NCBI GenBank assembly: GCA_964366535.1
Contig: CAYIUC010000005.1
Span: forward strand, 1-43,866
DNA from: an uncultured Candidatus Saccharibacteria bacterium
GTDB lineage: Bacteria; Patescibacteriota; Minisyncoccia; Phycocordibacterales; UBA10002
Direction: 5' to 3'
Length of the DNA: 43,866 bases
The notes under the pieces were generated by a model. The model had not been told where the DNA came from. It saw only the letters and a program-made list of their open reading frames with translations, and searched no databases. Each line of letters starts with the position of its first letter. The first letter of the stretch is position 1. Positions 9,303-39,814 of this stretch are shown one piece after another. The position numbers and the translations under genes are program-made.

Positions 9303-9539
9303 ATGAAAGAAGAAATGCCACGCCGCCAATCGCTCTTTTGGGATGTGGACCCGAAAACAATTGACCCAGAAAAGCACGGCCGCTATATCATTGAGCGGAT
9401 TTTGGACTTCGGCGATGATGCGGAGGTGCGGTGGGTATGGCGATACTACGACCACGCGCTCATACGCGATGTGGTGCAGCGTTCGCGCGCGCTTTTCCCA
9501 GAAACGCGCTCTTTTTGGAACCTAATGTTTGCAACATAA
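9303..9539 (+). CDS. small conserved-looking protein upstream of the AbiEii-type gene (possible antitoxin partner)
   Basis: 78 aa. TGcTATAAT at 9287-9295 lies 7 nt upstream of the ATG. The stop is 5 nt before the next start. Confidence 0.55.
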   Translation: MKEEMPRRQSLFWDVDPKTIDPEKHGRYIIERILDFGDDAEVRWVWRYYDHALIRDVVQRSRALFPETRSFWNLMFAT

Positions 9540-9544
9540 ACAAC

Positions 9545-10270: not shown

Positions 10271-10339
10271 ACCACCCCCTCTGTATCTCCCCCTTAATCA
10301 AGGGGGAGAAGCCCGAGCAGAGCGAGGGAGAGGGGGTGA
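10271..10339. repeat. nested G/C-rich palindromic element in the leader of the secreted-protein gene
   Basis: The outer arms CACCCCCTCT and AGAGGGGGTG pair perfectly. The inner hairpin is TCTCCCCCTTaatcAAGGGGGAGA. Confidence 0.85.
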
Positions 10340-10377
10340 TGTATTTTAGCAAGTTATTATTACGCAATAGCATAAGT

Positions 10378-12425: not shown

Positions 12426-12569
12426 CTCCCCCTCGGTTGAGGGGGAGTACTCCGACTTTAGTCGGAGGGAGGGGGTGGGTCAGCAAAACACCACCCCTCC
12501 GCTTCGCAGACTCAGCACCTCCCCTTAGGTAAAGGGCAGGTTAAAAGAGAGGCAGGGTGAGGGGGTGTT
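12426..12569. repeat. two adjacent G/C-rich palindromic elements
   Basis: 12426-12480 contains hairpins CTCCCCCTCggttGAGGGGGAG and CTCCGACtttaGTCGGAG. 12488-12569 has outer arms ACACCACCCCTC and GAGGGGGTGT. Both end in GAGGGGGTG. Confidence 0.8.
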
Positions 12570-12622
12570 TTACAAAATCCGACCAAAAGTGTCGGATTTT
12601 TGTTTGTGCTATGCTTTCGCGT

Positions 12623-14548: not shown

Positions 14549-14554
14549 CGCTTT

Positions 14555-14626
14555 GCGGAAGGCAAAATTTCGTCCTCTTTACCCTCTCTACGGGGGTCCT
14601 ACGAGATACGAAATTTCGCCTTCCGC
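14555..14626. repeat. 72-nt hairpin element, copy 1 (19-bp stem, conserved 34-nt loop)
   Basis: GCGGAAGGCAAAATTTCGT, then a 34-nt loop, then ACGAAATTTCGCCTTCCGC. The loop is identical to that of 30291-30362. The element lies between the uvrD stop and the rsmA start. Confidence 0.85.
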
Positions 14627-14654
14627 TTCGCGCTCAACGAGTTTTGTTATTATT

Positions 14655-15488
14655 ATGTTTGCAAAAAAATCACTGGGTCAACATTTTCTACGAAGCCGCG
14701 CCGCATTAGAAAAAATCGCGGCGGCCCCAGCGCTTACGCCGACTGATGTTGTGTTGGAGGTTGGACCAGGGGAGGGAGCGCTTACCGTTCTTCTCTTAGA
14801 ACGAGCAGGGAAAGTCGTTGCTGTAGAAAAAGATGCGCGGCTTATACCGATTTTGCAAGAAAAGTTTGCGCGCGAGATTGCTGCAGGAAAATTGGGACTC
14901 GTGCACGCTGATATTCTCGAAATCAAGACGCCCCAGATGTTTAGAAAAACCGCGCCAGATGTTGATGGGCTTCAAACATCTGGTGCGGTTTTTCCGGCCG
15001 CCGCATACAAAATCGTCGCCAATCTTCCGTACTACATCACTGGGCAATTCTTGCGTAAGTTTCTGCAAACCGAAACACAACCGAGTATGATGGTTTTACT
15101 GCTGCAAAGAGAAGTGGCGAAACGCATCACAGCGACCGACAAAAAAGAATCTATTCTTTCGCTTAGCGTTAAGTGCTACGGGGCTCCGCGCTACATAACA
15201 ACAGTTAAAGCCGGCTCCTTCTCGCCGCCGCCGAAGGTGGATTCGGCGATACTAGCGATTGAAGATATTTCTAAAGATTTCTTCACGGGTGGAGGGGTTG
15301 TCTTCTCCGAAGAAACATTTTTTACTATTATTAAAAAGGGCTTCGCGCATCCGCGTAAACTACTTTCTAACAACCTCGACATCAGTGCATCTGTGCTGGA
15401 ACAATGCGGCATACACGCGCGGGCGCGTGCCGAAAATGTTTCTTTGGAACAATGGAAGTGTATCGCAAGTGCATCACGAAGTGCCTAG
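14655..15488 (+). CDS. rsmA: 16S rRNA (adenine1518/1519-N6)-dimethyltransferase
   Basis: MFAKKSLGQHFL start and the SAM motif VLEVGPGEGALT. The longer track ORF from 14553 merely reads through the hairpin element. Confidence 0.85.
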   Translation: MFAKKSLGQHFLRSRAALEKIAAAPALTPTDVVLEVGPGEGALTVLLLERAGKVVAVEKDARLIPILQEKFAREIAAGKLGLVHADILEIKTPQMFRKTAPDVDGLQTSGAVFPAAAYKIVANLPYYITGQFLRKFLQTETQPSMMVLLLQREVAKRITATDKKESILSLSVKCYGAPRYITTVKAGSFSPPPKVDSAILAIEDISKDFFTGGGVVFSEETFFTIIKKGFAHPRKLLSNNLDISASVLEQCGIHARARAENVSLEQWKCIASASRSA

Positions 15489-16415
15489 CATGGGCACGGT
15501 CTGTGCTTGTGATGGTAGAGGGAAACATCCGAATACTGCATACATTAAACACGGGGCTCCTTGCGGTATGTAGCTTCCAAGCATAAATAGGGTAAACGGC
15601 GCATTGAAATTAAGAAACGCTTGCGAACCGGTGTAATGCGTCATTAGTGCAAGTGGTGGTACCGAAAGAGGTACCATACCAACTAGCCAGTTGCCGCTAC
15701 AGGTGCAAGGAAAAACATACACGACCATCCCTCCAAACCCGGGTATCTGCGCATCTGCGCGCGGCATAAGTGCGTCCGTAAGTTTCTGAAACAAAGATGT
15801 AACTCTATGCCGCCACGGCGACTCCCAAGAGATAGTACGCACATTTTTTCGCGACTCGCTTACAAATTGCGTAAGAAAGTCGGTTGTTGTAGCTAGGGCA
15901 AGCGAGCGCATGTCGCCCGCAAGTTTTTCCAATTCTTCCGCAGAGCGGCCTTGTTCTCCTCCAACTCGCTTAACTATTTCCAGAAATTGCTCCAGATTGC
16001 GCGAGTTTGGATTTTCTTTTTTTGTCTCTTCTCCTGCCCTTAACTTAAGGGGAGGTGCCCCGACGCTTTGGTCGGGGCGGAGGGGTGTTTTCTTTTCGTA
16101 TAAAAAAACATTCAGAGCCGCTAGGGTTTTTGGCCCAACCACTCCTAGTTCGCCCTTAATCGCATGCTCGCGTTGAAACACCGCGACCGACCTTGCCGTG
16201 GCAGCGCCAAAATAATTTGTTTCCTTGCTAGGCGAGCCAGCACCGGTATTAGCAACGCGCGTTTCCGCTCGTTCGTTCAAAAGTCTCTGGAGAGCGAACA
16301 CATCGGGGCCGCGCGAACCAAATTGGAGATCGCGCGCAAAGCGCCATTCTCCTGCATACGCGGGCTGAAACGCCACGACACACAAAATAGCGGATATAAA
16401 TACGCGAGACATCAT
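15474..16415 (-). CDS. secreted protein with a PG_binding_1-like peptidoglycan-binding domain
   Basis: Signal peptide MMSRVFISAILCVVAFQPAYA and the motif GSRGPDVFALQRLLN...YFGAATARSVAVFQ. It contains an in-frame palindromic element. Its 3' end overlaps rsmA by 15 nt in convergent orientation. Confidence 0.65.
   Translation of the reverse strand: MMSRVFISAILCVVAFQPAYAGEWRFARDLQFGSRGPDVFALQRLLNERAETRVANTGAGSPSKETNYFGAATARSVAVFQREHAIKGELGVVGPKTLAALNVFLYEKKTPLRPDQSVGAPPLKLRAGEETKKENPNSRNLEQFLEIVKRVGGEQGRSAEELEKLAGDMRSLALATTTDFLTQFVSESRKNVRTISWESPWRHRVTSLFQKLTDALMPRADAQIPGFGGMVVYVFPCTCSGNWLVGMVPLSVPPLALMTHYTGSQAFLNFNAPFTLFMLGSYIPQGAPCLMYAVFGCFPLPSQAQTVPMLGTS
16031..16089. repeat. G/C-rich palindromic element inside a minus-strand CDS
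   Basis: CCCTTAAcTTAAGGG and GCCCCGACgctttgGTCGGGGC hairpins followed by GGAGGGGTGTT. On the minus strand it is translated as ..RPDQSVGAPPLKLRAGEE.. Confidence 0.8.
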
Positions 16416-16440: not shown

Positions 16441-17430
16441 ATGATGCGGACACGCCCAATTACAATATCCGCCGTTATATTTCTCGCCGCACTCGTCGGC
16501 TTCTTTGCCTATTCTGAATACATAAATCAAGGTGAAGAGGTTGCGGCGCGAGAAGAAGCGCCCGCGAGCGTTCTCGGTTCTGCGGCGCTTATCGCCGACA
16601 GCGACCGCGACGGATTAAAGGATTGGGAGGAAGAACTTTGGCGCACTGCTCCCGACAAACCAGATACAGATGCCGACGGCACGAATGATGCGGAGGAAAT
16701 AAAAAACGGAAGGAATCCGCTTATTGCAGGCCCTGAAGATAAGCTAGATGCCGCAACCGCCGCGACTAAGGTGAACCCAGACGCAAAAACGACTACAACC
16801 GACACCGAGCGCCTTGCGAGAGAAATCTTTGGCACCTACCTTTCCACCAGGCAAGAAGGTCTGCCCCTTTCGCAAAATGAAATTGCAAACATAATAGACA
16901 CGGTATCTGCAAGCGTACCAGAAGAAAGCCCTAAAATATTTACCGCTACGGATGTGAAAACATTTGCCGATGAAAATAGCGCGGCGTTACGCGCGTACGG
17001 AAATGCACTCGGCTCAGTGCTCAAAAAGCCATGGCCCGCGCGCGAAAACGAAATTGCCGTCTTTGAACGCGCAATACAAGACGAAAACCCCGAGACGGCG
17101 CGGCTAGACCTTGCCAACCTCACGCCCATTTCGCTCGCATACGGCAATATGGGGAAAGACATCGCACGCATACAAGCCCCCGCGGGCGCGCTAGCTTCGC
17201 ACCTGCGCGCCGCAAACGCCACAATGGAGATAGGCGAGAGCGTGCGCGGTATGAGCTCTGCTCTAGATGATCCCATCAAGGCAGTATCAAGTGTCGCTCG
17301 CTACTTCGGCGCAGGCCCTCGACTAGGAGACGCGCTTGCGGAATTGCGAGCATACCTAGAAAACCGAGGTATTTCGTACACAGAAGACGAAGATGGTTAC
17401 GCGCTGTGGAATGCGACCGCTAACCAGTAA
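16441..17430 (+). CDS. membrane-anchored protein with thrombospondin type-3-like calcium-binding repeats
   Basis: N-terminal TM helix ITISAVIFLAALVGFFAY. Repeats are DSDRDGLKDWEE and DTDADGTNDAEE. TATACT at 16430-16435 lies 5 nt upstream of the ATG. Confidence 0.6.
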   Translation: MMRTRPITISAVIFLAALVGFFAYSEYINQGEEVAAREEAPASVLGSAALIADSDRDGLKDWEEELWRTAPDKPDTDADGTNDAEEIKNGRNPLIAGPEDKLDAATAATKVNPDAKTTTTDTERLAREIFGTYLSTRQEGLPLSQNEIANIIDTVSASVPEESPKIFTATDVKTFADENSAALRAYGNALGSVLKKPWPARENEIAVFERAIQDENPETARLDLANLTPISLAYGNMGKDIARIQAPAGALASHLRAANATMEIGESVRGMSSALDDPIKAVSSVARYFGAGPRLGDALAELRAYLENRGISYTEDEDGYALWNATANQ

Positions 17431-17446
17431 ATTAACCGCCCAGAGA

Positions 17447-17526
17447 CAACCCCTCCTGCCTCCCCCAAGGGGAGGTTCTGACCCTCCCTTCCCTTTGGGG
17501 AGGGAGTAGGAGGGAGGGGTGGTGTG
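17447..17526. repeat. nested G/C-rich palindromic element
   Basis: Hairpins CCTCCCCcaaGGGGAGG and CCCTCCCttccctttGGGGAGGG lie within CCCCTCCT...AGGAGGGAGGGG arms. The element ends in GGGGTGGTG. Confidence 0.8.
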
Positions 17527-17614
17527 TTTGATTGGGTTTTCCACTTCCGCACACAAAACAAACCCTCTATAATAAGGGCACGGAAGACGCCTCGCTAAAC
17601 GCGACAGGCGAATT

Positions 17615-19705
17615 ATGCGTTGCAAACACATTACAACTCTGCTCATCGTCTCTCTTTTCGTAACTGGCTCGCTATTTACGCCGACGAAGCGCGCCCATGC
17701 GCTTGTGAGCTGTATTCCAGCCATCGCCCCTATTCCAGATATACCACTAGCCGTACCTGTACAAAACTTCGGAGAAATGACGCGGCAAAATATTGCCAAT
17801 ACTTTCAGTGCCTCCAATTTCACCAAAGAGTGCATTCTGGATGCGATGGTTACATTCCTCAAAGAAGCGCTGATACAAAACATCACCGGCTCCATTGTGG
17901 ATTGGATAAACAACGACTTTGAGGGCGGTCCGGCGTTCGTAACCGACCCCGCAGGGTTTTTCGTAAATATTGCCGACGAGACCGCCGGGCGGTTTATAGA
18001 AAATCAATTAGGTCCCATCGGACAACTGCTTTGCAGTCCGTTTGACTTGCGACTGCGTTTGAATCTTTGGCTTGCAACAAGCGCCTCGCGCAAGCAGTAC
18101 ATCGGCTGTCGCCTTACCGATGTGCAGATGAATGTGCACGATGCGTTTACACAAGGTTCGTTTATCGCTTCCGGCGGTTGGAAAACATTTAACGCAATAA
18201 CTTCCGACCCTCGCAACAACCAATACGGCGCGTTCCTCTACGCCTCGGACGCTCTTAACAATGAATTCGTCAAAAGGGCGAATGAAACACTTCGCGATCT
18301 CTCGTACGGTAGGGGATTTCTGTCGTTTAAAAAATGTTCTGAGTGGGTAGATGCATCAAGTGAGGGAACGGGCGAGGGGAGCGGAAAAAGATGCGCAAAA
18401 TACAAAGTGGAAACCCCTGGCTCTCTTATCAACAACCAACTAAATAATGCGTTCGGCTCGGAATTGCGCAAATTTGAGTTGGCGGACGAAATAAACGAGG
18501 TGTTTCAAGCGCTTGTAAACTATGGGCTTCGGCAAGTGTTTACAGCGACAGGCGGCGGACTCCGTGGCGCGAGCAAGGCGGCGGCGGGACAAGAAAGCGC
18601 GGCGTCGCGCCTGCGAAGGTCAGAGGGTACGATAATGAACGAGGTATATGCAAACACGCAAACCGACACAACCGGTGGATTTATAACTACAAAATATGAT
18701 TTGGCTTCTAAGGACGACAATACGCTCACAAAAGTTGTGGCGGAAACAAAATCAGGAAGCGCGGGCGGCAGTAATGGAGAGCGGTTGTCGCCAGACCGAA
18801 ATCTTGCGCTTAATAGGCCGGCATCACAATCGGGATATTATGCCTTACCGCGCTATGATGCCGACAAAGCAGTCAATGGAGGCAAGGACGCGGTCAAGGG
18901 CGATTGTTATGGCTTCAACTGCGCCGCAGTAACCTCCAAATCATCCCCGATATACTGGGAAGTTGCGCTAGGGAAAACATATTCCATAAAAGAAGTGTGG
19001 ATACACAAGGCAAACGACCTTTCTTATGATGCAGCGTTGGGGACATTTAAACTTTCTATCTTAAAGCCGGACCGCGGTATCGCGTACACGAAAGAAGTTG
19101 CGGCCAATTCTGCCACTGCGATTCCACTCGTGATGCCGAACATCAATACCGCTGGCGCGATTGTGCGCATTGAGCGCGCGAATGGAGACGAACTTGCGCT
19201 TGCAGAAGTAGAAGTGTACGGCACGGAATGGGAGACGGCGACTGCAAACACGCCGCCGCCAACTGGCGTTACCGCTCCTCCACCTAGTGCAACTCCAGTG
19301 GTTTCGGTACAACGAAATGTGGAACTGAAAATTGACGGTCCGGTATTTACCATCAATGAACCGATCGTAAATGCGCATATAGGCATCTCAATGGACCAAC
19401 AAGTGGGTACGACATACAAGCCGTTTGCGCCACAGCAAGCGTTTTCAAAAATCCTCGTGCGGGTAAAAAATCAGGAAACGGGTGTGGAGAAGTTTACTGA
19501 GGAGTTTACCAATACGGAAATAAAAACATACCGCACCACCCAAACCTTTAGTGCCACGGCGGGAGAAAAAATAACCGTCGGATACGAGTTTACTCCACAA
19601 AGCGGCGCAAAGGGAAACTACGCGCTTAACACCGAAATAATCGGCTCGGATGGAAATCAGGTTCCCGGTGCCGTAAGCACAATGAGAATTCAAGCACCAA
19701 ATTAA
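17615..19705 (+). CDS. secreted protein with a C-terminal F5/8 type C (discoidin)-like domain; first gene of the T4SS-like operon
   Basis: Signal peptide MRCKHITTLLIVSLFVTGSLFTPTKRAHA. Discoidin-like block: NLALNRPASQSGYY...AVNG...YWEVALGKTYSIKEVWIH...LALAEVEVYG. Confidence 0.6.
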   Translation: MRCKHITTLLIVSLFVTGSLFTPTKRAHALVSCIPAIAPIPDIPLAVPVQNFGEMTRQNIANTFSASNFTKECILDAMVTFLKEALIQNITGSIVDWINNDFEGGPAFVTDPAGFFVNIADETAGRFIENQLGPIGQLLCSPFDLRLRLNLWLATSASRKQYIGCRLTDVQMNVHDAFTQGSFIASGGWKTFNAITSDPRNNQYGAFLYASDALNNEFVKRANETLRDLSYGRGFLSFKKCSEWVDASSEGTGEGSGKRCAKYKVETPGSLINNQLNNAFGSELRKFELADEINEVFQALVNYGLRQVFTATGGGLRGASKAAAGQESAASRLRRSEGTIMNEVYANTQTDTTGGFITTKYDLASKDDNTLTKVVAETKSGSAGGSNGERLSPDRNLALNRPASQSGYYALPRYDADKAVNGGKDAVKGDCYGFNCAAVTSKSSPIYWEVALGKTYSIKEVWIHKANDLSYDAALGTFKLSILKPDRGIAYTKEVAANSATAIPLVMPNINTAGAIVRIERANGDELALAEVEVYGTEWETATANTPPPTGVTAPPPSATPVVSVQRNVELKIDGPVFTINEPIVNAHIGISMDQQVGTTYKPFAPQQAFSKILVRVKNQETGVEKFTEEFTNTEIKTYRTTQTFSATAGEKITVGYEFTPQSGAKGNYALNTEIIGSDGNQVPGAVSTMRIQAPN

Positions 19706-19708
19706 CCA

Positions 19709-21652
19709 ATGAAAAAACTTATTATCATCGTTTTGTTGCTCGGCATCGCACTCGCTCCGGTGGGCGGGGGGGTGGCTTTTGCAGTGGAAACCGGCGGAAA
19801 TGCCCCGCAAACAAACGGCGAGGTGAATGGCGGGTGCGGGATGTTTTCTATAGGCGACTGCATCACCTTCTTTATTGCCCAAATGGGCAATATGGTAATG
19901 ACGCTTGTCTCTAGCGTGCTCAGTATAGCGGGCGCGGCGCTGAACTTCTCGGTGGACCTTACCGTCAATATGAGCGCGTTTCTTGCAAAGGTAAAAATTG
20001 TGGATGTGGGGTGGAAGATAATGCGCGATATTGCAAACCTTTTCTTCATCTTCATACTCCTCTGGGTCGGAATACGCACTATTTTGCAAATGGGAAGCGA
20101 CAACGAGGTGCGTAAGACGCTTCTATGGGTAGTAGTAATGGCACTTCTTATAAACTTCTCGCTCTTTATCACCAAAGCGGTGGTGGATATGGGAAACATT
20201 GCAACACTCCACTTCTACGACGCTATGCGCCCCGACCTATATGAGAACGGGCAACCAGTAAAGGATGCGCAAGGAAAACAAGTAAAGGCGGGTCTTTCCG
20301 ACATATATATGGAAGGGCTAAAAATGCAGACCTTTATGGGGAGCGGTAGCTCTGTGAACAACTTAGTCGCAACTGCAGGCGGCTTCACCAACCAATTTAT
20401 CAAAATTGGGTTGGTAACAATTCTCGGCTCCGTCTTCTTCCTTGTGGCGGCGTTTGTTTTCTTCGCCGCCGCATTTCTCTTTATCGGTCGCGCGGTTGTG
20501 CTTATGTTCCTTATGTTACTCTCGCCACTCGCATTTGCGGCGCAGGTGATACCAAGCATGCAGGGACAAGCTAAGCGTTTTTGGGATACACTTCTCAAAC
20601 AAACCTTCTTCGCTCCGCTCTATATGGCGCTCACTTATGTCGTGGCCAAGGCAATACAAAGTAACGGATTTTCGGACCTTACCAACATTACCGGCAACCA
20701 AGCATCGTTTGCCGCGCTCCTTACTGGCGAACCGTCTGACAATATCGGCATTGTTGTCAACTACATCTTCCTCATCGGCGCGATGGTGTACACGCTCGTT
20801 ATCGCAAGCCAGGGTGGCGCGTATGGAAGCAAGATGGTCATCGGCTGGGGCAAATCGCTCCAAGGGTGGGGGCAGGGGCTCGTTACAGGTGCCGCGGGAG
20901 GGGTTGCCGCGCGCGCTTTGGGCGGTCTTTCCAAGGCGGCGACGGGCGGCTTGTCGGGAACCACGAGTGCCTTTGGGCGCGCGGCGCTCCGCACTGCCGA
21001 CCGTTTGCAAAATATGAAAATCGGCGGCAAGTCATACAAGGAGATGCAAGAGAAGGGGACTTTCTTTGGAGTGGGGGAGGAGGAGATAGAACGAAACATG
21101 AAGCAGTTTAAGAGCCGACCGCAAGAACAAGCGGCGTACCTCTCGCGACTTTCCGAAGGCCAACGGCGTAAGGCATATGAGAAGTTGTCGGCACGAGATA
21201 GGGTTGCAATTGAGCGTACTGGCGTATTGCAACAAGCGCAGATAAACGATATGTATGGACGCCTCAATCCAGAGGAGCGTGACAAGGTTGACGAGGCGCG
21301 ACGCAAGGTACGACAAGAAGAGGGTAATGAACAACGAATGGCTACCGTGGAAACAATCACTGCGGTTCCAGTTGGTACGCCGCTTACTGCCGACCAAATA
21401 ACAGCGGTTACTCAACTCCGCCCAAATCAAGCGCGCGATCTTTCACACGAAGCGCGTACAAACCCTGAAATTATTCGCCGTTTGCGTCCACAACACCTAC
21501 GCGATTTGATGGAAAATGGAAACCTACTTCCGGATGAAATACAGGCAATAATGAATGAGATAGGAGTAGTGGGTGCACCGATAACATATCCAGCGCAGAA
21601 TGCCCAACGCACTTATGTTCAAAATCCGGCAAATGCGGTCTTATGGACGTAA
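19709..21652 (+). CDS. polytopic membrane protein, VirB6/TrbL-like
   Basis: 647 aa with a signal peptide, at least six hydrophobic helices and a charged cytoplasmic tail. The start is 3 nt after the upstream stop. Confidence 0.5.
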   Translation: MKKLIIIVLLLGIALAPVGGGVAFAVETGGNAPQTNGEVNGGCGMFSIGDCITFFIAQMGNMVMTLVSSVLSIAGAALNFSVDLTVNMSAFLAKVKIVDVGWKIMRDIANLFFIFILLWVGIRTILQMGSDNEVRKTLLWVVVMALLINFSLFITKAVVDMGNIATLHFYDAMRPDLYENGQPVKDAQGKQVKAGLSDIYMEGLKMQTFMGSGSSVNNLVATAGGFTNQFIKIGLVTILGSVFFLVAAFVFFAAAFLFIGRAVVLMFLMLLSPLAFAAQVIPSMQGQAKRFWDTLLKQTFFAPLYMALTYVVAKAIQSNGFSDLTNITGNQASFAALLTGEPSDNIGIVVNYIFLIGAMVYTLVIASQGGAYGSKMVIGWGKSLQGWGQGLVTGAAGGVAARALGGLSKAATGGLSGTTSAFGRAALRTADRLQNMKIGGKSYKEMQEKGTFFGVGEEEIERNMKQFKSRPQEQAAYLSRLSEGQRRKAYEKLSARDRVAIERTGVLQQAQINDMYGRLNPEERDKVDEARRKVRQEEGNEQRMATVETITAVPVGTPLTADQITAVTQLRPNQARDLSHEARTNPEIIRRLRPQHLRDLMENGNLLPDEIQAIMNEIGVVGAPITYPAQNAQRTYVQNPANAVLWT

Positions 21653-21658
21653 CCTCAT

Positions 21659-22702
21659 ATGAAATTTACACATACACAAGCCCTAGAATCTCTTAACAAA
21701 CTCCCGCAAGAGACGCGCGAGCGCGTCACTTCGCAAGAAATAACCGACGCGACTATTCGTATCGCGGAAAGAAATGTAGTTCCAAAAGAAAAGATCCTTG
21801 CTTTTAGTTCTGCAGTAGGAACTGTACTACTCGGTTTGATTCAAAAAGAAAAACTTGCCGAGCAGTTGGTTGCAGAGTTGCAACTGCCGCCAGAAAAAGC
21901 CGCCGCGATTGCGGGGGAGGTGGAGAAAGAGATTTTTAATAGTTCTCCCTCTGCCCCTTTTTCAAAGGGGAAGTCCCCGAGTCCGTCTAAGGCGGACGAG
22001 GGGGTAGGGGTTGGTCACGCACAAGGCATACCCCTCCGCCCCGCCCCGCCAGTCGGCGAGGCGGGGCACCTCCCCTCTCAAAGAGGGGAGGGGGAACAAA
22101 AACAAATTTCTCCCCCTCGCCCCGTCCCCATCCGCAAGCCACTACCCCCTCTTGCTCCCTCCCTTTTGGGGAGGGCGGGGGGAGGGGTTGTACCCTCTCT
22201 CCAATCCCTCCTCGCCGACATTCGCCGCGGCACGGCATACGACGAGAATCGTATAGCCGATGCCTTCCGAAAAACGCCGATTGAAGTCAAGCAGTCGCTA
22301 GAGAGTGTCGGGTTTCTATCACGAATGGAAGGCGTTGCGAAAAAGTTTGGTTTAAATGTGGAAGAAACTGGGGAGCTCGTGAGCGAGTCGGGGCTCGTAA
22401 TGCTCGGGCTAACACAACCAATGAACTTCGTAGACAATCTCACGAAACGATTGCGACTGCCGCGCGACCGCGCGATGGCGGTAGGGCAAGCGGTAAATAT
22501 GGAGGTACTGCGCCCAGTGCGGGAAATTTTGCGGAAGATGAGTGTGCCGTCGGAGGAGCTGCGATTTGCGCCGCCCGCCACCCCTGCTCCTTCACAAAAT
22601 CCTCCCCCAACCCCCTCCTTTAGTAAAGGAGGGGGCGGAGGGGGCGGATTTTCTCCAGTGCAAAAATACACTACCGACCCCTACCGCGAACCAATAAACT
22701 AA
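21659..22702 (+). CDS. hypothetical protein with two homologous ~60-aa modules separated by a repeat-element-derived Pro/Gly linker
   Basis: IAERNVVPKEK...GTVLLGLIQ...LQLPPEKAAAIAGEV aligns with VAKKFGLNVEE...GLVMLGLTQ...LRLPRDRAMAVGQAV. The linker at 21945-22191 consists of palindromic elements. Confidence 0.6.
   Translation: MKFTHTQALESLNKLPQETRERVTSQEITDATIRIAERNVVPKEKILAFSSAVGTVLLGLIQKEKLAEQLVAELQLPPEKAAAIAGEVEKEIFNSSPSAPFSKGKSPSPSKADEGVGVGHAQGIPLRPAPPVGEAGHLPSQRGEGEQKQISPPRPVPIRKPLPPLAPSLLGRAGGGVVPSLQSLLADIRRGTAYDENRIADAFRKTPIEVKQSLESVGFLSRMEGVAKKFGLNVEETGELVSESGLVMLGLTQPMNFVDNLTKRLRLPRDRAMAVGQAVNMEVLRPVREILRKMSVPSEELRFAPPATPAPSQNPPPTPSFSKGGGGGGGFSPVQKYTTDPYREPIN
21945..22191. repeat. 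three tandem G/C-rich palindromic elements, in frame in a CDS
   Basis: Copies at 21945-22016, 22031-22097 (opposite arm order) and 22108-22191. Each contains CCCC...GGGG hairpins. Confidence 0.8.
22596..22652. repeat. 57-nt nested palindrome (AAAATCC-type element) in frame in a CDS
   Basis: AAAATCCTCCCCCaaCCCCCTCCTTTAgTAAAGGAGGGGGcgGAGGGGGcGGATTTT. It is translated as NPPPTPSFSKGGGGGGGFS. Confidence 0.85.
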
Positions 22703-22703
22703 T

Positions 22704-23105
22704 ATGAAGTATCAGACACCGCAATTTATAGACATAGAAGACAAGCTATTTGGGCCGTTTACGGTCAAACAATTCATCTACCTAGTCGGTGGAGCTGGAC
22801 TTTCGTTTATCGCATATCGTTTTTTGCCGACCGTTATAAATATAATCGTCATCCTGCCGATTGCCGCACTCGCACTCGCACTCGCGTTTTGGAAAATCAA
22901 CGGCAAACCGTTTGTGTTTATCTTAGAATCCGCTATTCGTTATTACTTCTCCGACAAGCTCTACCTCTGGCGCAAGGTGCCTAAAACCATGTTGGCAAAG
23001 AGTGTCGCGCCAAACGCCCCCCCAACAATACCGAAATTAAATGAAGGCAAGTTGCGCGACCTCACTTGGACGCTAGACATTTCGCATACGACAACGCGAA
23101 AGTAA
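22704..23105 (+). CDS. PrgI-family-like (VirB3-like) small two-TM protein
   Basis: FIDIEDKLFGPFTVKQFIYLVGGAGLSF followed by a second helix. The start is 1 nt after the upstream stop. Confidence 0.6.
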   Translation: MKYQTPQFIDIEDKLFGPFTVKQFIYLVGGAGLSFIAYRFLPTVINIIVILPIAALALALAFWKINGKPFVFILESAIRYYFSDKLYLWRKVPKTMLAKSVAPNAPPTIPKLNEGKLRDLTWTLDISHTTTRK

Positions 23106-23123
23106 GCGGGGTATACTATCACC

Positions 23124-23750
23124 ATGCCACCACATACGAAACCAACACAGGAGTTCGTCCCAATCTCTGAAATACGAGACGGGGTGCTCATTTTGCGAGA
23201 CGGCGGGTTGCGCGCTTTGCTTATGGTCTCATCTGTCAACTTCGCGCTCAAATCCGAAGACAACCAAGAAGCGATACTTCTGCAGTTTCAAAACTTCCTT
23301 AATACGCTGGATTTTTCGGTACAAATTGTAGTACATTCGCGCCGTTTTGATGTGCGTCCTTACCTTGCCCTATTAGAAGAACGAGTGAAGGCGCAAGAAA
23401 CGGAACTCTTGAAAATCCAAACGCGCGAGTATATCGGCTTCGTGCGCTCGTTTACCGAAAGCACTGCAATTATGTCCAAAACCTTCTTTATCACCGTGCC
23501 GTATTCGCCTACTCCAGTTAAACTTAAGGGCGGGCTTCCTGTCGGGTTCCGCAAAAACCAATCAAAAAGCGCTACGGCCAGCGACTTCAACGAAACCAGA
23601 ACGCAATTGGAGCAGCGTATCTCTATTGTGGAGCAGGGGCTTACGCGGTGCGGGCTGCGCACCGCGCGGCTTGGAACAGACGAAGAGATAGAGTTGTTTT
23701 ATAAATTGTTTAACCCTGGCGAAGAACAGCATGCGGCAGTTACCGCATAA
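23124..23750 (+). CDS. T4SS-associated protein resembling a VirB4/TraC N-terminal (non-ATPase) domain
   Basis: Contains EFVPISEIRDGVLILRDGGLRALLMVSSVNFALKSEDNQ. TATACT at 23112-23117 lies 6 nt upstream of the ATG. Confidence 0.45.
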   Translation: MPPHTKPTQEFVPISEIRDGVLILRDGGLRALLMVSSVNFALKSEDNQEAILLQFQNFLNTLDFSVQIVVHSRRFDVRPYLALLEERVKAQETELLKIQTREYIGFVRSFTESTAIMSKTFFITVPYSPTPVKLKGGLPVGFRKNQSKSATASDFNETRTQLEQRISIVEQGLTRCGLRTARLGTDEEIELFYKLFNPGEEQHAAVTA

Positions 23751-23757
23751 AAATACT

Positions 23758-25572
23758 ATGGGAATCTTTGATTTTCTAAAACCAAAAAGGAAAGAGACGG
23801 ACGAGGTAACCCCGATACTACCCGAACAAATCTACCAGTCGGGAGTTTTGGAATTGCGCGATGTGCTCGCGCCCGCCGCGCTCAAAATCTCTCCAAAAAT
23901 CCTAAATCTCGGCGAGAAAATAGCGCGTTCATACTTTGTCATCTCATATCCGCGCTTTCTCACCGCAGGGTGGTTCTCACCAATTATCAATTTGGACAAA
24001 GTATTTGATGTTTCCATCTTCGTACACCCAGTGGAGACAGGAAAGGTGCTGAAGCAATTCCAAAAGAAAGTCGCCGAGGTGCAAAGCCAAATACACACTA
24101 GGGAGGAAAAGGGGTTCGTGCGCGACCCGCAGTTGGAAACCGCCTACCAAGACCTAGAGAAACTGCGCGATGAACTGCAACAGGCGCAGGAAAAGATTTT
24201 TGATGTTGGGCTCTACCTCACGCTCTATGCGGACTCGGAAGAAGAGTTGGAAAAGGTGGAGAGCGAGGTGAAGTCCATTATGGAAGCGAAGCTCGTGTAT
24301 ATGAAGCCCGCGCTCTTCCAGCAGGCAGAAGGGTTCCGCTCGGTAGCGCCTTTAGCCACCGACGAACTCCTAGTGCACTCTAAACTAAACTCCGGACCGC
24401 TTTCTTCCATCTTTCCATTTATTTCGTTTGACCTCTCGTCCGACAAAGGCATTCTATACGGCATAAACAGACACAACTCGTCGCTAGTGCTGTTTGACCG
24501 ATTTTCTCTGGAAAACTACAACTCTGTCGTCTTCGCAAAGTCCGGCGCGGGCAAGTCGTATATGATGAAGCTGGAAATTCTCCGCACGCTTATGTTTGGT
24601 ACGGAAGTTATTGTGATTGACCCCGAAAAAGAGTACGCGTTTCTCGCAGAATCGGTGGGAGGAAAATTCTTTTCCATCTCGCTTACATCCGAACACCACA
24701 TAAACCCATTTGACCTACCGCTCCCGCGCGAAGACGAGTCGCCAGCGGATATATTGCGAAGCCATATAATTTCCTTGGTCGGGCTTTTCCGCATTATGCT
24801 CGGAGGTCTATCACCCGAAGAAGATGCACTCGTAGACCGCGCGATTACAGAAACATACGCGCTCAAAGACATTACGCCCGACTCGGACTTTGGAAAAACC
24901 GAGCCGCCGCTACTTTCCGATTTTGAACTGGTGCTCGCGGGTATGGAAGGCGCAGAAAGTATCCGCGTACGGCTCACCAAATATACGAAGGGCACCTGGT
25001 CAAACTTCATAAACCGCCCATCCAATGTTTCCATAGACGGAAACCTTGTCGTGTTTTCTTTGCGAGACATGGAAGACGAGCTAAAATCGGTCGCTACTTA
25101 CATCGTAACGCACCACATCTGGAACGCGGTACGCAGAAACCTGAAGCGCCGCCTACTGATTGTAGACGAGGCGTGGTGGATGATGAGGAGCGAAGATACT
25201 GCATCTTTCCTTTTATCTGTAGCAAAACGCGGGCGCAAATATTTCTTGGGGGTGGCAACTATTACGCAAGATGTGGACGACTTCCTCTCTTCGCCATACG
25301 GATTGCCGATTGTTACAAACTCTTCTATCCAGATGCTACTTAAGCAGTCGCCGGCAGTGATAGATCGCATCCAAAAAGTATTTAACCTGACAGATGAGGA
25401 AAAGTACCTGCTCTTGGAGTCGGATGTGGGGGAGGGGCTTTTCTTCGTAGGGCTGAAGCATGTTGCGATAAAAATCGTTGCTTCCTATACCGAAGATCAG
25501 ATTATTACCAGCGACCCATCGCAACTTTTGGCGATTAAGAAAGCGAAAGACGAATTGAAAGCAGCTTCATAG
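23758..25572 (+). CDS. VirB4/TrbE/TraC-like type IV secretion ATPase
   Basis: Walker A is FAKSGAGKSYMMK and Walker B is LLIVDEAWWM, with the motif GVATITQD. I prefer the start MGIFDF at 23758; the track ORF starts at 23731. Confidence 0.75.
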   Translation: MGIFDFLKPKRKETDEVTPILPEQIYQSGVLELRDVLAPAALKISPKILNLGEKIARSYFVISYPRFLTAGWFSPIINLDKVFDVSIFVHPVETGKVLKQFQKKVAEVQSQIHTREEKGFVRDPQLETAYQDLEKLRDELQQAQEKIFDVGLYLTLYADSEEELEKVESEVKSIMEAKLVYMKPALFQQAEGFRSVAPLATDELLVHSKLNSGPLSSIFPFISFDLSSDKGILYGINRHNSSLVLFDRFSLENYNSVVFAKSGAGKSYMMKLEILRTLMFGTEVIVIDPEKEYAFLAESVGGKFFSISLTSEHHINPFDLPLPREDESPADILRSHIISLVGLFRIMLGGLSPEEDALVDRAITETYALKDITPDSDFGKTEPPLLSDFELVLAGMEGAESIRVRLTKYTKGTWSNFINRPSNVSIDGNLVVFSLRDMEDELKSVATYIVTHHIWNAVRRNLKRRLLIVDEAWWMMRSEDTASFLLSVAKRGRKYFLGVATITQDVDDFLSSPYGLPIVTNSSIQMLLKQSPAVIDRIQKVFNLTDEEKYLLLESDVGEGLFFVGLKHVAIKIVASYTEDQIITSDPSQLLAIKKAKDELKAAS

Positions 25573-25579
25573 ATAAAGT

Positions 25580-25936
25580 ATGGAAGAAAATGCAAAACAA
25601 GAACCAAAAATAGACAAAGCAACTGGCATTGTGATGATTGCCGTCGCGGCGCTTTTTGATATTGCGAATGCCGGTATTAACCTAATACCCGTACTAGGGC
25701 AAATTCTCGCAGTGCTAATTTCTATAGTCGGGTACTGCACATTTACACTATGGTTCTGGAAGCGAGGTATCGGATTTGTAAATCCTAAGCGTACTGCAAC
25801 ATTTTTCGGTTCAGGAATTATTGAAGCGATTCCGGTACTAAATATTCTTCCCGCGCTCACGGTCGGGGTGGCGCTCACTGTCGGCATGGTACAATTAGAA
25901 GACAGAACCGGGATTAAATTACCGGAAAAAGTATGA
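25580..25936 (+). CDS. small polytopic membrane protein
   Basis: 118 aa with three to four hydrophobic helices. Tightly packed within the operon. Confidence 0.55.
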   Translation: MEENAKQEPKIDKATGIVMIAVAALFDIANAGINLIPVLGQILAVLISIVGYCTFTLWFWKRGIGFVNPKRTATFFGSGIIEAIPVLNILPALTVGVALTVGMVQLEDRTGIKLPEKV

Positions 25937-26889
25937 AGAGAATATTTTTTCTTATCGTCTTTCTCGCCGCCGTGCCGGCTTTTGCCGCGCTGCCGCCTTC
26001 GCCAGACGCGGTGGTCATAACGCTATCGCCAGAAAAGCCCGCGCCAGATACGACGGTGCAGGCAACGCTCTCCATTTTGAGCGGCGGCAGCGCGGCGGAT
26101 ATGGATATAGAGTGGCTTGTAAACGGAACATCGATACGGAAAGGGAAGGGGGTATCTTCTATTTCGTTCCGCACCGGGAAGCTCGGCGCCCGAACTACGC
26201 TCACAGCGCGGATTTCAGAAGGCGAAGAAAAAGTTGAGAAGACGCTCGTGCTTTCTCCCGCATCAGTCGTGCTTGTAGCAGAATCAGACGGCAATGTGCC
26301 GCCTTTCTACCGCGGCAAAACGCTTTTTTCTTACCATGGCTCAACTCGCATTGCGGCAATTCCATTCTTTGCAAGCGCAAACGGCGCGCGCGCGAACCCA
26401 AAAACGCTCAGCTACACTTGGCGTATTGCCGACAGAGTACCCGAGGGCTCGTCTGGAATTGGGCGCGATGTGTTTACATTCTACGCAAAAGTGCCGTTCC
26501 GACCGACGGAAATAGAAGTGGAAGTTGCGACAGTAGATGGGAGCGCAATCGCCGAAGGGCGCATTCTTGCCGAAGCGAAAGCGCCTGAAATAGTACTCTA
26601 CGAAACACACCCGCTATACGGGACGCTCTGGAACAAGGCGCTCTCGGAACTAACGCTAGTTGCGCCAGAGGTGCGCGTGCTTGCAGAGCCGCTCTTCTTC
26701 AACAAAGCCGATGCGCCATTTCTCAAATATGACTGGACGCTATCCGGCAAAAAGGTCGGCGCCCAGTCTGACGCGAGCGTAGTATTTCGCAAAGAGGGCG
26801 CGGAAGGCACAGCGGGCGTTACCGTCGAGATAACCAACCCGCGCGCAATGTTTCAGTTTGGCGAAGCGCGTGGAGTGATACATTTTTAA
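25933..26889 (+). CDS. secreted hypothetical protein
   Basis: Signal peptide MKRIFFLIVFLAAVPAFA. The start overlaps the upstream stop as ATGA. Confidence 0.6.
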   Translation: MKRIFFLIVFLAAVPAFAALPPSPDAVVITLSPEKPAPDTTVQATLSILSGGSAADMDIEWLVNGTSIRKGKGVSSISFRTGKLGARTTLTARISEGEEKVEKTLVLSPASVVLVAESDGNVPPFYRGKTLFSYHGSTRIAAIPFFASANGARANPKTLSYTWRIADRVPEGSSGIGRDVFTFYAKVPFRPTEIEVEVATVDGSAIAEGRILAEAKAPEIVLYETHPLYGTLWNKALSELTLVAPEVRVLAEPLFFNKADAPFLKYDWTLSGKKVGAQSDASVVFRKEGAEGTAGVTVEITNPRAMFQFGEARGVIHF

Positions 26890-26921
26890 TATACGAATAT
26901 ACGAATTATACGAATCTACAA

Positions 26922-27971
26922 ATGTCTACGAATAAAACAAAATTGGTTGGAATAATTGCGGGCACAGGCACGCTGATTTTGTTTGTTCTCCCGTTCTTTG
27001 TCTTTGCCGCCGATTATATTCCGCTTGCGTCAATTCCTGGCACCACTGAAGTTGGGAAAACAACCGCATCGCTCTCGTCTTACCTTACCGGTATGTACCG
27101 AGTGGGCATAGGCGCTGCGGGAATACTTGCCGTACTTATGCTCGTCTGGGGCGGATTCCAGTATGCGACTACGGAAGCGGTAATGGGAAAAAGCGAAAGT
27201 AGGGGTATTATTATGAATGTCGTATGGGGTCTCGCGGTAATTCTAGGCTCGTACCTTCTTCTCGTCACCATCAACCCGCGTCTAGTAGACATCGGCCTCA
27301 CGATTGGGAATTTGAATAGGGTGAATCGTACTAGAATACCAACACCGGAAGAAACTTACGGTAAATTTCTTGATAGTATGCTCCAAAGAGTACAGGCGAC
27401 ATCTCAAAAAGCACGGGACATAAAAAAACTTTCTGACGATAAGCGACTAGAGCGTGGTTTACTTCAACAAAAAATTGACGAGGGGAATTATGAGAACGAC
27501 GCGGAACTTGAATCTCTTCAATCACAAATAAACTTACTGGACAAAGAAGTTGGTTTTTTGGATGTACAAGAAGTTAATGTGCGAAATTATGAAAACGCGC
27601 TTGATCAAATTGATTTGAATAGCAAAAACATGTTGGATTGTCTTACCGGATATGGGTCTTGCCAAAGATATGTTAGCAATAGCGCGGTATCAAGATTTAT
27701 TAGAAATAAGATCCTTGGGGGAAGATCAGAAACGCAACTACAAGCAGACGAAGCGGAAGCCGCGAAGTTTTTAGATGGCGCACAAAAAGATGCTAATAAA
27801 CGCATGGCGGAATTGCGCGCGGCGGGTTTAACACAAAGAGCAGATGCGTTGCAGACAAAAATAAATGGTATGACTGATCAATTCACTCGAGGAAAAGATT
27901 TCGGGAGGGCGTGTGATGGGGCCACTAAACCTATGCCAACGAATTGGAGATCGGGAGACGCGTGCCCATAA
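26922..27971 (+). CDS. T4SS pilin-like (TrbC/VirB2-like) N-terminal module fused to an AT-rich coiled-coil C-terminal half
   Basis: A signal peptide is followed by two hydrophobic helices (GIGAAGILAVLMLVWGGFQY; VVWGLAVILGSYLLLVTINP). The C-terminus is rich in heptad-like charged sequence. Confidence 0.55.
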   Translation: MSTNKTKLVGIIAGTGTLILFVLPFFVFAADYIPLASIPGTTEVGKTTASLSSYLTGMYRVGIGAAGILAVLMLVWGGFQYATTEAVMGKSESRGIIMNVVWGLAVILGSYLLLVTINPRLVDIGLTIGNLNRVNRTRIPTPEETYGKFLDSMLQRVQATSQKARDIKKLSDDKRLERGLLQQKIDEGNYENDAELESLQSQINLLDKEVGFLDVQEVNVRNYENALDQIDLNSKNMLDCLTGYGSCQRYVSNSAVSRFIRNKILGGRSETQLQADEAEAAKFLDGAQKDANKRMAELRAAGLTQRADALQTKINGMTDQFTRGKDFGRACDGATKPMPTNWRSGDACP

Positions 27972-27975
27972 TTTT

Positions 27976-29193
27976 ATGCAAAACAAAACCAAAAAAATAA
28001 TCTGGGGGGTTCTGATTGTACTACTAGCGGCGGCTGGAGCATTTGCGTATTGGTGGTTCTTTATGCGTCCCAGTGCCGAAGTTGCCGTGAGTGAGCCCGT
28101 GACATTTCCAACAGGAGAAAATATCGGCATCGACGAAGGTAGTCCAGAGTTGCTCGGCGGACAAGGCAATATCGGGATAGAGGAAGGAGAGGCCCCGCTC
28201 CTACGGCAACTTACCAAAAACCCCGTTGCTGGAGCAGTAATTTTCTCGCGCGCCGGCTCTACACTCGTGCGCTATGCCGAGCGCGGCACTGGGCATTTAT
28301 TTGAAATCGGCGCAGACGATGCCGAACCAAAACGCATCTCCAACCAGACAATTCCAGAAATCGGCGAGGTGCTTTGGAAGCCAGATGGGTTGGGTATTAT
28401 CGTACGCTACGCAAAGGAATCGGCGGGTACGGAATACATTGAGAGTTTTTATGCAAGCGTTCCCGCCGACGCTACAGAAGACGCGCCGCTCCGCGCATCT
28501 TTCCTCCCGCGCAATATCCGAACGCTTGCGTTCTCGCCTACCGGCAATACGCTCTTTTATCTTTCGGAAAACTCTTCCGGCTCCTCCGGTATTCTCGCTG
28601 CGCCCGACGGCACGCGCAAAAACACCTTGTTTGAACTGCCTCTAAAAGATCTTGCAGTAATATGGTCGGTAAACGATTCGCTCTTCCTCACGACGCGCGC
28701 GTCGTCGGGCGCTCCCGGGCACCTCTTCTCTGTCGGTACACAAAGCGGAGCAGTTGATGTTGTCGCAAGCGACACTGGGCTCACAGCGCTTACAAGCCGA
28801 GGAGGAACTCTAGCGCTTCTTGCATCAAGCGGGGAAGGCGGCTCGGGTCTTTCGCTCTTTAATCGCTCTTTGGGAGACATAACACCGCTCGGGCTACAAA
28901 CACTCGCCGATAAGTGCGTATGGGGCAAGCGTACGCGCACAAACGCATATTGCGCGGTACCAAGCGGAATACCAGGAAACAACTTCCCCGATAGTTGGTA
29001 CCAAGGGGTTATACAAACAGAAGACGCTTTGTGGGCAATTGATGCCGAAGACGCGCGCGCTTCTATTGTCGCAGACATAAGCGAGGTTGCGCGTGAGAGC
29101 ATTGATGCTTTTAATTTTGATATCAGCCCAGACGACAAATATCTACTTTTCCAAAACAAAAACGATTTAAGCTTGTGGCTGCTTAAGATTTAG
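27976..29193 (+). CDS. membrane-anchored beta-propeller-like (TolB/PD40-like) protein
   Basis: I prefer the start MQNKTKKIIWGVLIVLLAAAGAFAYWWFF at 27976. Repeated segments of the type LAFSPTGNTLFYLSE and WKPDGLGIIVRY are present. Confidence 0.55.
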   Translation: MQNKTKKIIWGVLIVLLAAAGAFAYWWFFMRPSAEVAVSEPVTFPTGENIGIDEGSPELLGGQGNIGIEEGEAPLLRQLTKNPVAGAVIFSRAGSTLVRYAERGTGHLFEIGADDAEPKRISNQTIPEIGEVLWKPDGLGIIVRYAKESAGTEYIESFYASVPADATEDAPLRASFLPRNIRTLAFSPTGNTLFYLSENSSGSSGILAAPDGTRKNTLFELPLKDLAVIWSVNDSLFLTTRASSGAPGHLFSVGTQSGAVDVVASDTGLTALTSRGGTLALLASSGEGGSGLSLFNRSLGDITPLGLQTLADKCVWGKRTRTNAYCAVPSGIPGNNFPDSWYQGVIQTEDALWAIDAEDARASIVADISEVARESIDAFNFDISPDDKYLLFQNKNDLSLWLLKI

Positions 29194-30280: not shown

Positions 30281-30290
30281 GTGTCACTTC

Positions 30291-30362
30291 GCAGAAAGCG
30301 GAATTTTTTCCTCTTTACCCTCTCTACGGGGGTCCTACGAGATAAAAAATTCCGCTTTCTGC
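30291..30362. repeat. 72-nt hairpin element, copy 2 (perfect 19-bp stem, conserved 34-nt loop)
   Basis: GCAGAAAGCGGAATTTTTT, then a 34-nt loop, then AAAAAATTCCGCTTTCTGC. It fills the rpmH-rnpA spacer. Confidence 0.85.
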
Positions 30363-30366
30363 TTCG

Positions 30367-30501
30367 TTACACCGTAAGACGCTTACGACCTTTCTGCCTG
30401 CGGCGAGCGATTACGCGCTTTCCGGAGGTGCGGCTCATACGCGCGAGGAAGCCGTGCGTCCTCGCGCGCTTTTTCTTCTTTGGTTTGTAGGTAAAGCTCA
30501 T
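30367..30501 (-). CDS. rpmH: 50S ribosomal protein L34
   Basis: My own translation gives [44 protein letters not shown]. The ORF is below the track length cutoff. Confidence 0.9.
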
Positions 30502-39807: not shown

Positions 39808-39814
39808 AATCTGC

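Follow-up and report, generated by a model that had tools for sequence, protein, structure and literature searches.

Type IV secretion systems (T4SSs) of the Patescibacteria are treated as a recognised T4SS subtype in a 2025 review, according to which they are also the first T4SSs whose essentiality for their own bacterium has been demonstrated (PMC12857230). Quinonero-Coronel et al. surveyed 3,035 Patescibacteria genomes (2025, Microb Genom; PMC12102498). That survey reports that the Patescibacteria VirB4 ATPases form a monophyletic clade nested in MPF-FATA, the monoderm class; that TrsD is the most abundant accessory component and usually adjoins virB4; that PrgI/VirB3, VirB6, and VirB2-like pilins occur near virB4, with VirB8 mostly undetectable and relaxases almost absent; and that the cluster lies close to dnaA, dnaN, rnpA, ksgA, and rpmH, especially in Paceibacteria. 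In 2023, Wang et al. (Cell; PMC10633639) found by transposon insertion sequencing (Tn-seq) that the T4SS cluster SEML1_0006-0019 of Southlakia epibionticum ML1, its pilin genes included, is essential for epibiotic growth. The function of these systems has been called 'completely unknown' (PMC11665869). In the present study, we analysed a stretch of 43,866 nt (about 44 kb), contig CAYIUC010000005.1 of assembly GCA_964366535.1; this stretch, referred to below as the window, is the part of the genome that was in view. We found a block of open reading frames (ORFs) around a virB4 gene that is very probably a chromosomal T4SS of the Patescibacteria type, here in a genome of the Paceibacteria/Parcubacteria.

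The block consists of ten consecutive ORFs on the plus strand (17615-29193), which are separated by gaps of 1-32 nt or joined by a 4-nt ATGA overlap (25933-25936). The last of them, ORF10, ends convergently to yidC with an overlap of 11 nt. A preliminary description of this DNA had enumerated these ten ORFs, head to tail, with the same strand, coordinates, gaps, and overlap, and these are all present. It had counted eleven ORFs in the range, which holds ten; an eleventh conserved gene lies upstream, at 16441-17430. In this genome, the gene is located 184 nt upstream of ORF1. In 31 of 32 related genomes, its orthologue abuts the ORF1 orthologue (gap of less than 60 nt, about 2 nt); we therefore assign it to the same conserved block, and it is likely the 'eleventh' gene. 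In the spacer (17431-17614), two G+C-rich hairpins (17458-17476 and 17482-17507) precede a perfect TATAAT (17568-17573). Because the relatives have almost no spacer at this position, the upstream gene may, in this genome, no longer be transcribed together with the other genes of the operon.

The assignment is carried first by the ATPase. ORF6 matches the NCBIfam model of the CD1110-family VirB4 (NF045971) at 1.6e-103 (347 bits; cutoff, 325) over model positions 178-733, and it also matches PF19044, AAA_10, and DUF87. The solved VirB4 C-domain (PDB 4AG5) is matched at 3.5e-41, and the translation contains both Walker A (SGAGKSY) and Walker B (LLIVDEAWW). On these matches the protein is assigned to VirB4 and not to HerA/FtsK, in agreement with the preliminary description, which had pointed to the two motifs. 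Its choice of start codons also agrees with the orthologues: the VirB4 sequence MGIFDFLK (start at 23758) is aligned from residue 1 in most orthologue loci, and the start of ORF10 (27976) fits the N-terminal consensus MxKK.

Relatives of this VirB4 were searched for in one genome per species, and at least 494 were confirmed. We studied the loci of the best 80 of these, ranked by VirB4 similarity. All 80 are from metagenome-assembled genomes of Patescibacteria, labelled as Parcubacteria, Paceibacterota, Kaiser-, Taylor-, Zambryski-, Nomura-, or Campbellbacteria, or loosely as 'Saccharibacteria'. ORF6 is 72-79% identical to VirB4 of these 80 species-level genomes, a figure inflated by the ranking. 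This identity, together with MPF-FATA CD1110 as the best curated model, places ORF6 with the Patescibacteria VirB4s, an assignment made by similarity.

The gene order recurs as UvrD-RsmA-[PG-binding]-upstream gene-ORF1-ORF2-[ORF3]-PrgI-TrsD-VirB4-[ORF7]-ORF8-ORF9-ORF10-YidC-DnaA-DnaN. It is thus kept, flanks included, in about 80 species-level Patescibacteria genomes, which answers the question of synteny raised by the preliminary description. The median identities of the core proteins are 75% for VirB4, 58% for TrsD, and 47% for PrgI; those of the housekeeping proteins are 58% for DnaA, 53% for UvrD, 46% for both YidC and RsmA, and 39% for DnaN. The extracytoplasmic proteins of the block have a median identity of about 30%. 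VirB4, in loci ranked by VirB4 similarity, is more conserved than DnaA, UvrD, and DnaN, which is striking for a secretion ATPase.

Two further core components are encoded directly upstream of virB4. ORF5 gives sub-threshold matches to the N-terminal positions of VirB4 models (VirB4_plasma, 1.5e-8; CD1110, 5.2e-6) and to TrsD (2.3e-3); the VirB4 N-domain-like protein of the preliminary description is thus the known TrsD-like component. In 78 of the 80 loci, its orthologue is a separate ORF that directly precedes virB4, mostly with gaps of 1-9 nt, and each of the three relative frames occurs among these loci. Because the two are separate in so many loci and in every frame, TrsD/VirB4 is a real two-gene split, and a virB4 pseudogene broken by a frameshift is ruled out. 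ORF4 matches PF12666 (PrgI) at 7.5e-11 (42.9 bits), above the Pfam gathering cutoff of 27, as expected from its earlier description as PrgI/VirB3-like. It has a hydrophobic hairpin at residues 32-67 by hydropathy profile, and its orthologue is found in 76 of the 80 loci with about 47% identity.

The pilin was recognised through its orthologues. Of 41 proteins in the position of ORF9, 38 match PF18895 (T4SS_pilin; best, 2.4e-10) and three match TrbC/VirB2. ORF9 itself matches the profile of its orthologues at 2.7e-38 and is the sole ORF in the window to do so, which upholds the T4SS-pilin-like protein proposed earlier. Its hydropathy profile shows a signal-like segment and two transmembrane segments, and the C-terminal 225 or so residues are unconserved.

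ORF2 has an orthologue in the same position in 60 of the 80 loci and is probably an 'extended' VirB6/TrbL-like channel subunit, an architecture described in PMC12857230. Weak matches to PF04610 (TrbL/VirB6; best, 2.6e-4) were obtained for three of 33 ORF2 orthologues. The copy in the window has no Pfam match to TrbL/VirB6, and profile searches of PDB with the full-length protein and with its transmembrane domain gave no match to VirB6/TrwI. The earlier expectation that the membrane ORFs belong to T4SS families was thus correct for PrgI, above the cutoff, and for the pilin, through its orthologues, and is less well supported for TrbL/VirB6. For ORF7, 26 orthologues align, with D27 and P91 conserved, and a slot of its size is present in 43 of 68 loci. 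Pfam searches with ORF7 as a possible pilin or member of another known family gave only scattered matches at chance level. The features of the block and its surroundings are summarised in Table 1.

Table 1. Genes and other features of the T4SS block and its flanks in the window
Feature	Position	Strand	Length (aa)	Description
UvrD/PcrA	12557-14548			Upstream flank
80-nt hairpin, copy 1	14551-14630			Between uvrD and rsmA
RsmA/KsgA	ends at 15488			Upstream flank
PG_binding_1 protein	15474-16415	-		Signal peptide, Cys-rich C-terminus (PF01471, 5.6e-7); divergent neighbour
Upstream gene	16441-17430	+		N-terminally membrane-anchored; thrombospondin-type-3 (TSP3)-like DxDxDG calcium-binding repeats
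ORF1	17615-19705	+	696	Secreted/anchored surface protein: helical N-domain (about residues 50-320), F-type-lectin/F5-8C carbohydrate-binding domain (about 391-540), immunoglobulin (Ig)-like beta-sandwich (about 556-696)
ORF2	19709-21652	+	647	Polytopic, about six hydrophobic segments (residues 1-371), then hydrophilic C-terminal domain of about 275 aa
ORF3	21659-22702	+	347	Soluble, Pro/Gly-rich, internally duplicated module of about 40-90 aa
ORF4	22704-23105	+	133	PrgI/VirB3-like small membrane protein
ORF5	23124-23750	+	208	TrsD-like, free-standing homologue of the VirB4 N-terminal domain
ORF6	23758-25572	+	604	VirB4 ATPase of MPF-FATA/CD1110 type, without its own N-domain
ORF7	25580-25936	+	118	Small membrane protein, three or four hydrophobic segments; variably present
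ORF8	25933-26889	+	318	Secreted/anchored; three tandem Ig/fibronectin type III (FnIII)-like beta-sandwich domains
ORF9	26922-27971	+	349	VirB2-type T4SS pilin domain (about residues 1-125), then variable coiled-coil, Cys-containing extension of about 225 aa
ORF10	27976-29193	+	405	N-terminally membrane-anchored; probable TolB/PD40-like beta-propeller ectodomain
80-nt hairpin, copy 2	30287-30366			Between rnpA and rpmH; same orientation as copy 1
YidC, RnpA, RpmH	rpmH, 30367-30501	-		Downstream flank
DnaA, DnaN, class A penicillin-binding protein				Downstream, beyond rpmH

These results can be compared with the systems described so far. The VirB4 type, the separate TrsD, PrgI, the pilin, the lack of a relaxase and of a nearby type IV coupling protein (T4CP), and the position close to dnaA are the same here as in the T4SS of the Patescibacteria clade (PMC12102498), and a VirB6-like protein is probably shared as well. 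Nothing essential differs from that description; a single pilin with a long C-terminal extension takes the place of a pilin array. As every published hallmark is reproduced, the VirB6-like protein as a probable one, the locus is a typical member of a system already described in the 2023-2025 papers and no new kind of system. The genes for the lectin, three-Ig, propeller, and TSP3-repeat envelope proteins are without family assignment in the main text of the survey.

The cluster of S. epibionticum likewise has Gram-positive-like subunits and pilins and no recognisable coupling or relaxase protein (PMC10633639), and its low locus tags (0006-0019) suggest a position near the chromosome start. It differs in belonging to the Saccharimonadia, in having six divergent pilins, and in having peptidase/lysozyme genes downstream of virB4, whereas the present block has one pilin and no hydrolase inside it. 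With the conjugative MPF-FATA systems (CTn2/CD1110, pCF10 Prg, and pGO1 Trs) the block shares a VirB4 that passes the CD1110 cutoff, homologues of PrgI and TrsD, and the lack of an outer-membrane core complex. Those systems have a relaxase, a T4CP, a VirB8-like protein (PrgL/TraM), a VirB1-like hydrolase, and surface adhesins, and they have no VirB2 pilin. Here, in contrast, a VirB2-type pilin is present, and a relaxase, T4CP, and VirB8 were not found among the scanned ORFs.

The roughly 40 largest ORFs of the window were scanned for domains with these missing functions. None of them has a domain of a relaxase, a T4CP, an integrase, VirB8, VirB9, VirB10, or VirB11, as the preliminary description, which had noted the absence of a relaxase, VirD4, VirB8-11, and integrase, had stated. 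With no parts for DNA processing among the scanned ORFs, the machine is most likely not a conjugative one. For VirB8/PrgL, no ORF gave a match; structural modelling covered the best positional candidate, ORF8, and not ORF3, ORF7, ORF10, or the upstream gene.

The absence of an integrase and the similarity of ORF6 to a conjugative-type VirB4 bear on another explanation, in which an integrated conjugative element (ICE) of the MPF-FATA type known from Gram-positive bacteria would have left the block as a remnant or would carry it as cargo. The best model match of ORF6 is indeed the ICE-type CD1110 VirB4, and two copies of an 80-nt direct repeat, starting at 14551 and 30287, could be taken as the boundaries of such an element. 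The copies are 85% identical with an identical 35-nt apex (CCTCTTTACCCTCTCTACGGGGGTCCTACGAGATA), and they bracket 15.7 kb including the cluster. The preliminary description had reported no flanking att-like repeats; it was right that there is no att site, and it had missed this repeat. Each copy folds into a hairpin with a 19-bp stem, in which the differences between the copies are compensatory (folding z-score, about -8). We found seven further copies in metagenome contigs. In the alignment of all nine sequences, 16 pairs change on both sides, almost all of them as strict Watson-Crick pairs, and 93.6% of cells are paired, compared with about 50% when the partners are slid. Rfam gave no family anywhere in the window, including the surroundings of the first copy. 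The hairpin may be a small RNA, a DNA palindrome or element like a miniature inverted-repeat transposable element (MITE), or a recombinase site; two of the seven further copies have a tyrosine-recombinase gene about 90 nt downstream.

The other copies are single and stand between unrelated housekeeping genes on other contigs, for example between ftsW and murG, and the hairpin is absent from the 80 syntenic loci. For these two reasons we regard it as a dispersed intergenic element and not as an att site. As the bounds of an island the repeats are ruled out, the segment between them also enclosing essential genes. The bracketed segment holds rsmA, yidC, and rnpA in addition to the cluster, and dozens of species-level genomes have the same gene order without the repeat. 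The GC content of the block is flat at 0.48-0.53, the same as in the flanks, with no compositional break, and the scanned ORFs include no integrase, relaxase, or T4CP. An ICE remnant is thus largely refuted and can be regarded as effectively excluded. The opinion of the preliminary description that the locus is a chromosomal, possibly essential surface machine and not a conjugative element agrees with the literature (PMC10633639, PMC12102498).

The substrate of such a machine could be DNA taken up from outside. A T4SS that imports host or environmental DNA, either as a source of nucleotides or for transformation, would resemble ComB of Helicobacter and Ced of Archaea. Neither of these needs a relaxase or coupling protein, and none is present in the scanned ORFs; DNA uptake has also been raised for Saccharibacteria, as these organisms cannot make nucleotides (PMC11665869). 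The DNA-import ATPase of Archaea, CedB, is weakly matched by ORF6 (4e-9). However, this match reaches 35.6 bits against a cutoff of 700, whereas the conjugative-type CD1110 model passes its cutoff. No CedA- or ComEC-like channel protein is found in the block, and in S. epibionticum the comEC-dependent competence is dispensable, whereas the T4SS is essential. We therefore consider DNA import unlikely; it is a sub-hypothesis on the substrate of the Patescibacteria-type T4SS and not a different machine.

The extracytoplasmic proteins of the block are more diverse than its core. The product of the upstream gene has one transmembrane-like segment (residues 4-28) and weak matches to the thrombospondin-3 repeats of MtsD/CglD (4e-5), and a homologue is found in the same position in 36 of the 80 loci. 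In the AlphaFold2 (AF2) model of ORF1, residues 391-696 have a predicted local distance difference test score (pLDDT) above 90, and Foldseek finds fucose-binding modules (2J22 and 4GWJ; TM-score, 0.86; E, about 1e-9). Orthologues of ORF1 give F5/8-type-C Pfam matches (best, 2.7e-12). The 'discoidin' protein of the preliminary description was thus placed in the correct fold family, and the Foldseek result makes F-type-lectin/F5-8C fold the better name. Among 43 orthologues, the N-domain is conserved and the C-terminal modules vary. ORF1 is a candidate adhesin. Some homologues show DUF4141 and a weak N-terminal similarity to TrbJ over the leader-proximal 30-40 residues only, and the model of the N-domain has low confidence (pLDDT, 45-75); an identity of this domain with VirB5 is for these reasons a lead only.

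ORF3 has no transmembrane segment and no match in Pfam or NCBIfam. Its internal repeat, which had been noticed earlier, aligns at an E-value of 5e-7. A gene-sized slot (at least 499 nt) is present between the ORF2 and PrgI orthologues in all 60 of 60 loci, and similarity to ORF3 is detectable in 17 of them. ORF8, with an orthologue in 73 of the 80 loci, has an N-terminal hydrophobic segment (residues 1-24). Its AF2 model (pLDDT, 83.6; predicted TM-score, 0.69) matches only multi-Ig/FnIII chains in Foldseek and has no NTF2/VirB8 fold, so that ORF8 is ruled out as the missing VirB8. ORF10 has a transmembrane segment at residues 5-31 and is present in 60 of the 80 loci. This agrees with the membrane anchor proposed earlier. 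The similarity to beta-propellers is weak, the profile of ORF10 orthologues matching TolB propellers at best at 2.7e-3 and ORF10 itself matching the PD40 repeat at 8.4e-3, and the ectodomain is probably a propeller of this kind.

Such a set of surface proteins invites the explanation that the system is an adhesion or attachment pilus only, in which VirB4 would power a VirB2-type filament that bears the ORF1 lectin for host binding, without the passage of any substrate. Several features of the block are typical of adhesive organelles, namely a pilin whose C-terminal extension is large and variable, a lectin fold, and Ig-like and propeller proteins, and no T4CP that would recruit a substrate is present among the scanned ORFs. 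On the other hand, PrgI/VirB3 and a probable VirB6-like channel subunit are retained, and the very high conservation of VirB4 suggests a role beyond adhesion. Attachment and motility are thought to be given by type IV pili (PMC11665869), and a PilB-type ATPase is encoded in the window. An organelle for attachment alone is, in our opinion, improbable.

Several points weigh against the assignment to a Patescibacteria-type T4SS. The window's own pilin, lectin, and propeller matches, including that of ORF9 itself, are all below the Pfam thresholds. The VirB6 assignment of ORF2 is weak, both in the few orthologues that match and in the lack of a match for the window copy and in PDB, and no protein like VirB8 or VirB1 was recognised. 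As only 44 kb of the genome is visible, genes for a T4CP or a relaxase could lie in another part of it; VirD4 homologues distant from virB4 are common in Patescibacteria (PMC12102498). Function, substrate, and essentiality are extrapolated here from another class, the Saccharimonadia. The counts of promoter-like and terminator-like sites inside the block are not above those in shuffled sequence, so that a single transcript is neither supported nor contradicted.

With the Patescibacteria-type T4SS as the preferred reading, general knowledge of T4SSs suggests how the parts might work together. VirB4/TrsD would dock on PrgI and on the polytopic ORF2 (extended VirB6) to form a membrane translocon, which would extract the ORF9 pilin and polymerise it; the product would be a surface filament, or a conduit, that crosses the monoderm envelope. 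The part that spans the wall and contacts the host would be made up of fast-evolving proteins, namely the membrane-anchored TSP3-repeat protein, the lectin ORF1, ORF8 as a stalk of three Ig domains, and the propeller ORF10, with ORF1 binding a glycan of the host surface. The more likely outcome, rather than conjugation, would be a contact-dependent exchange with the host cell, either export of effectors or other proteins or import of host material. Such a role is consistent with the need of S. epibionticum for the homologous cluster in epibiotic growth.

A more speculative proposal, which as a whole we think improbable, is that the missing VirB5/7/8/9/10 functions are supplied in Paceibacteria by a lineage-specific, fast-evolving envelope module that is co-inherited with the VirB4/TrsD/PrgI core. 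In this proposal, ORF1 would be a VirB5/TrbJ-like pilus-tip protein, its helical N-domain with the DUF4141/TrbJ-like leader being fused to swappable glycan-binding modules that set the host range, the pilin would display a large C-terminal domain, and ORF8, ORF10, and the TSP3-repeat protein would form a wall-spanning stalk. If true, the T4SS pilus of a monoderm would here have an architecture that has not been described before.

The chromosomal setting of the block was as expected. UvrD, RsmA, YidC, RnpA, RpmH, DnaA, and DnaN were identified, in accordance with the housekeeping neighbours (rsmA and yidC-rnpA-rpmH-dnaA) reported earlier. The spacer between dnaA and dnaN has only two DnaA boxes, each with one mismatch, and the cumulative GC skew across the window has no turning point; for these reasons, the term 'origin region' rests on gene content only. 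Only 12 of the 80 loci have a detectable homologue of the divergent PG_binding_1 protein near the block. This protein may be an associated cell-wall factor, of uncertain membership in the block. A secreted cell-wall protein with LysM and an M23 peptidase domain is encoded near the cluster on the opposite strand (8043-9014, minus), and either of these two products could open the wall in the manner of VirB1, a function for which the operon has no protein of its own.

Other genes of the window are of separate interest. A T2SSE ATPase of the PilB/GspE type with an MshEN domain (1.5e-116; 41350-43023, minus) points to a set of type IV pilus genes starting close to the right end; in Saccharibacteria, the type IV pilus is the second envelope machine for which essentiality has been reported. 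Upstream of uvrD, a 690-aa protein (10336-12408, plus) contains a type I dockerin domain (3.2e-11), a surface or cellulosome-type module that is unusual for a reduced genome. Among the housekeeping genes we observed an AbiEii nucleotidyltransferase toxin (9431-10207, plus; 1.9e-17), a DUF559 endonuclease-like protein (38071-38427, plus; 6e-34), and a weak match to a HigB-like toxin (39535-39888, minus; 3.2e-4). An ORF of the YebC/PmpR family (38475-39008, minus) has just 177 aa, aligned to about the first 137 of about 245 model positions, and may be truncated or frameshifted.

To the important problem of the Patescibacteria T4SS and its substrate, the present study makes a modest addition: a per-gene map of its conserved, unannotated envelope partners (the lectin-fold ORF1, three-Ig ORF8, propeller-like ORF10, and the TSP3-repeat protein) and evidence that the division into TrsD and VirB4 is a fixed two-gene state. 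A cytoplasmic core whose conservation in these genomes equals or exceeds that of DnaA, together with surface parts at about 30% identity, fits an indispensable machine with a host-adapting interface.

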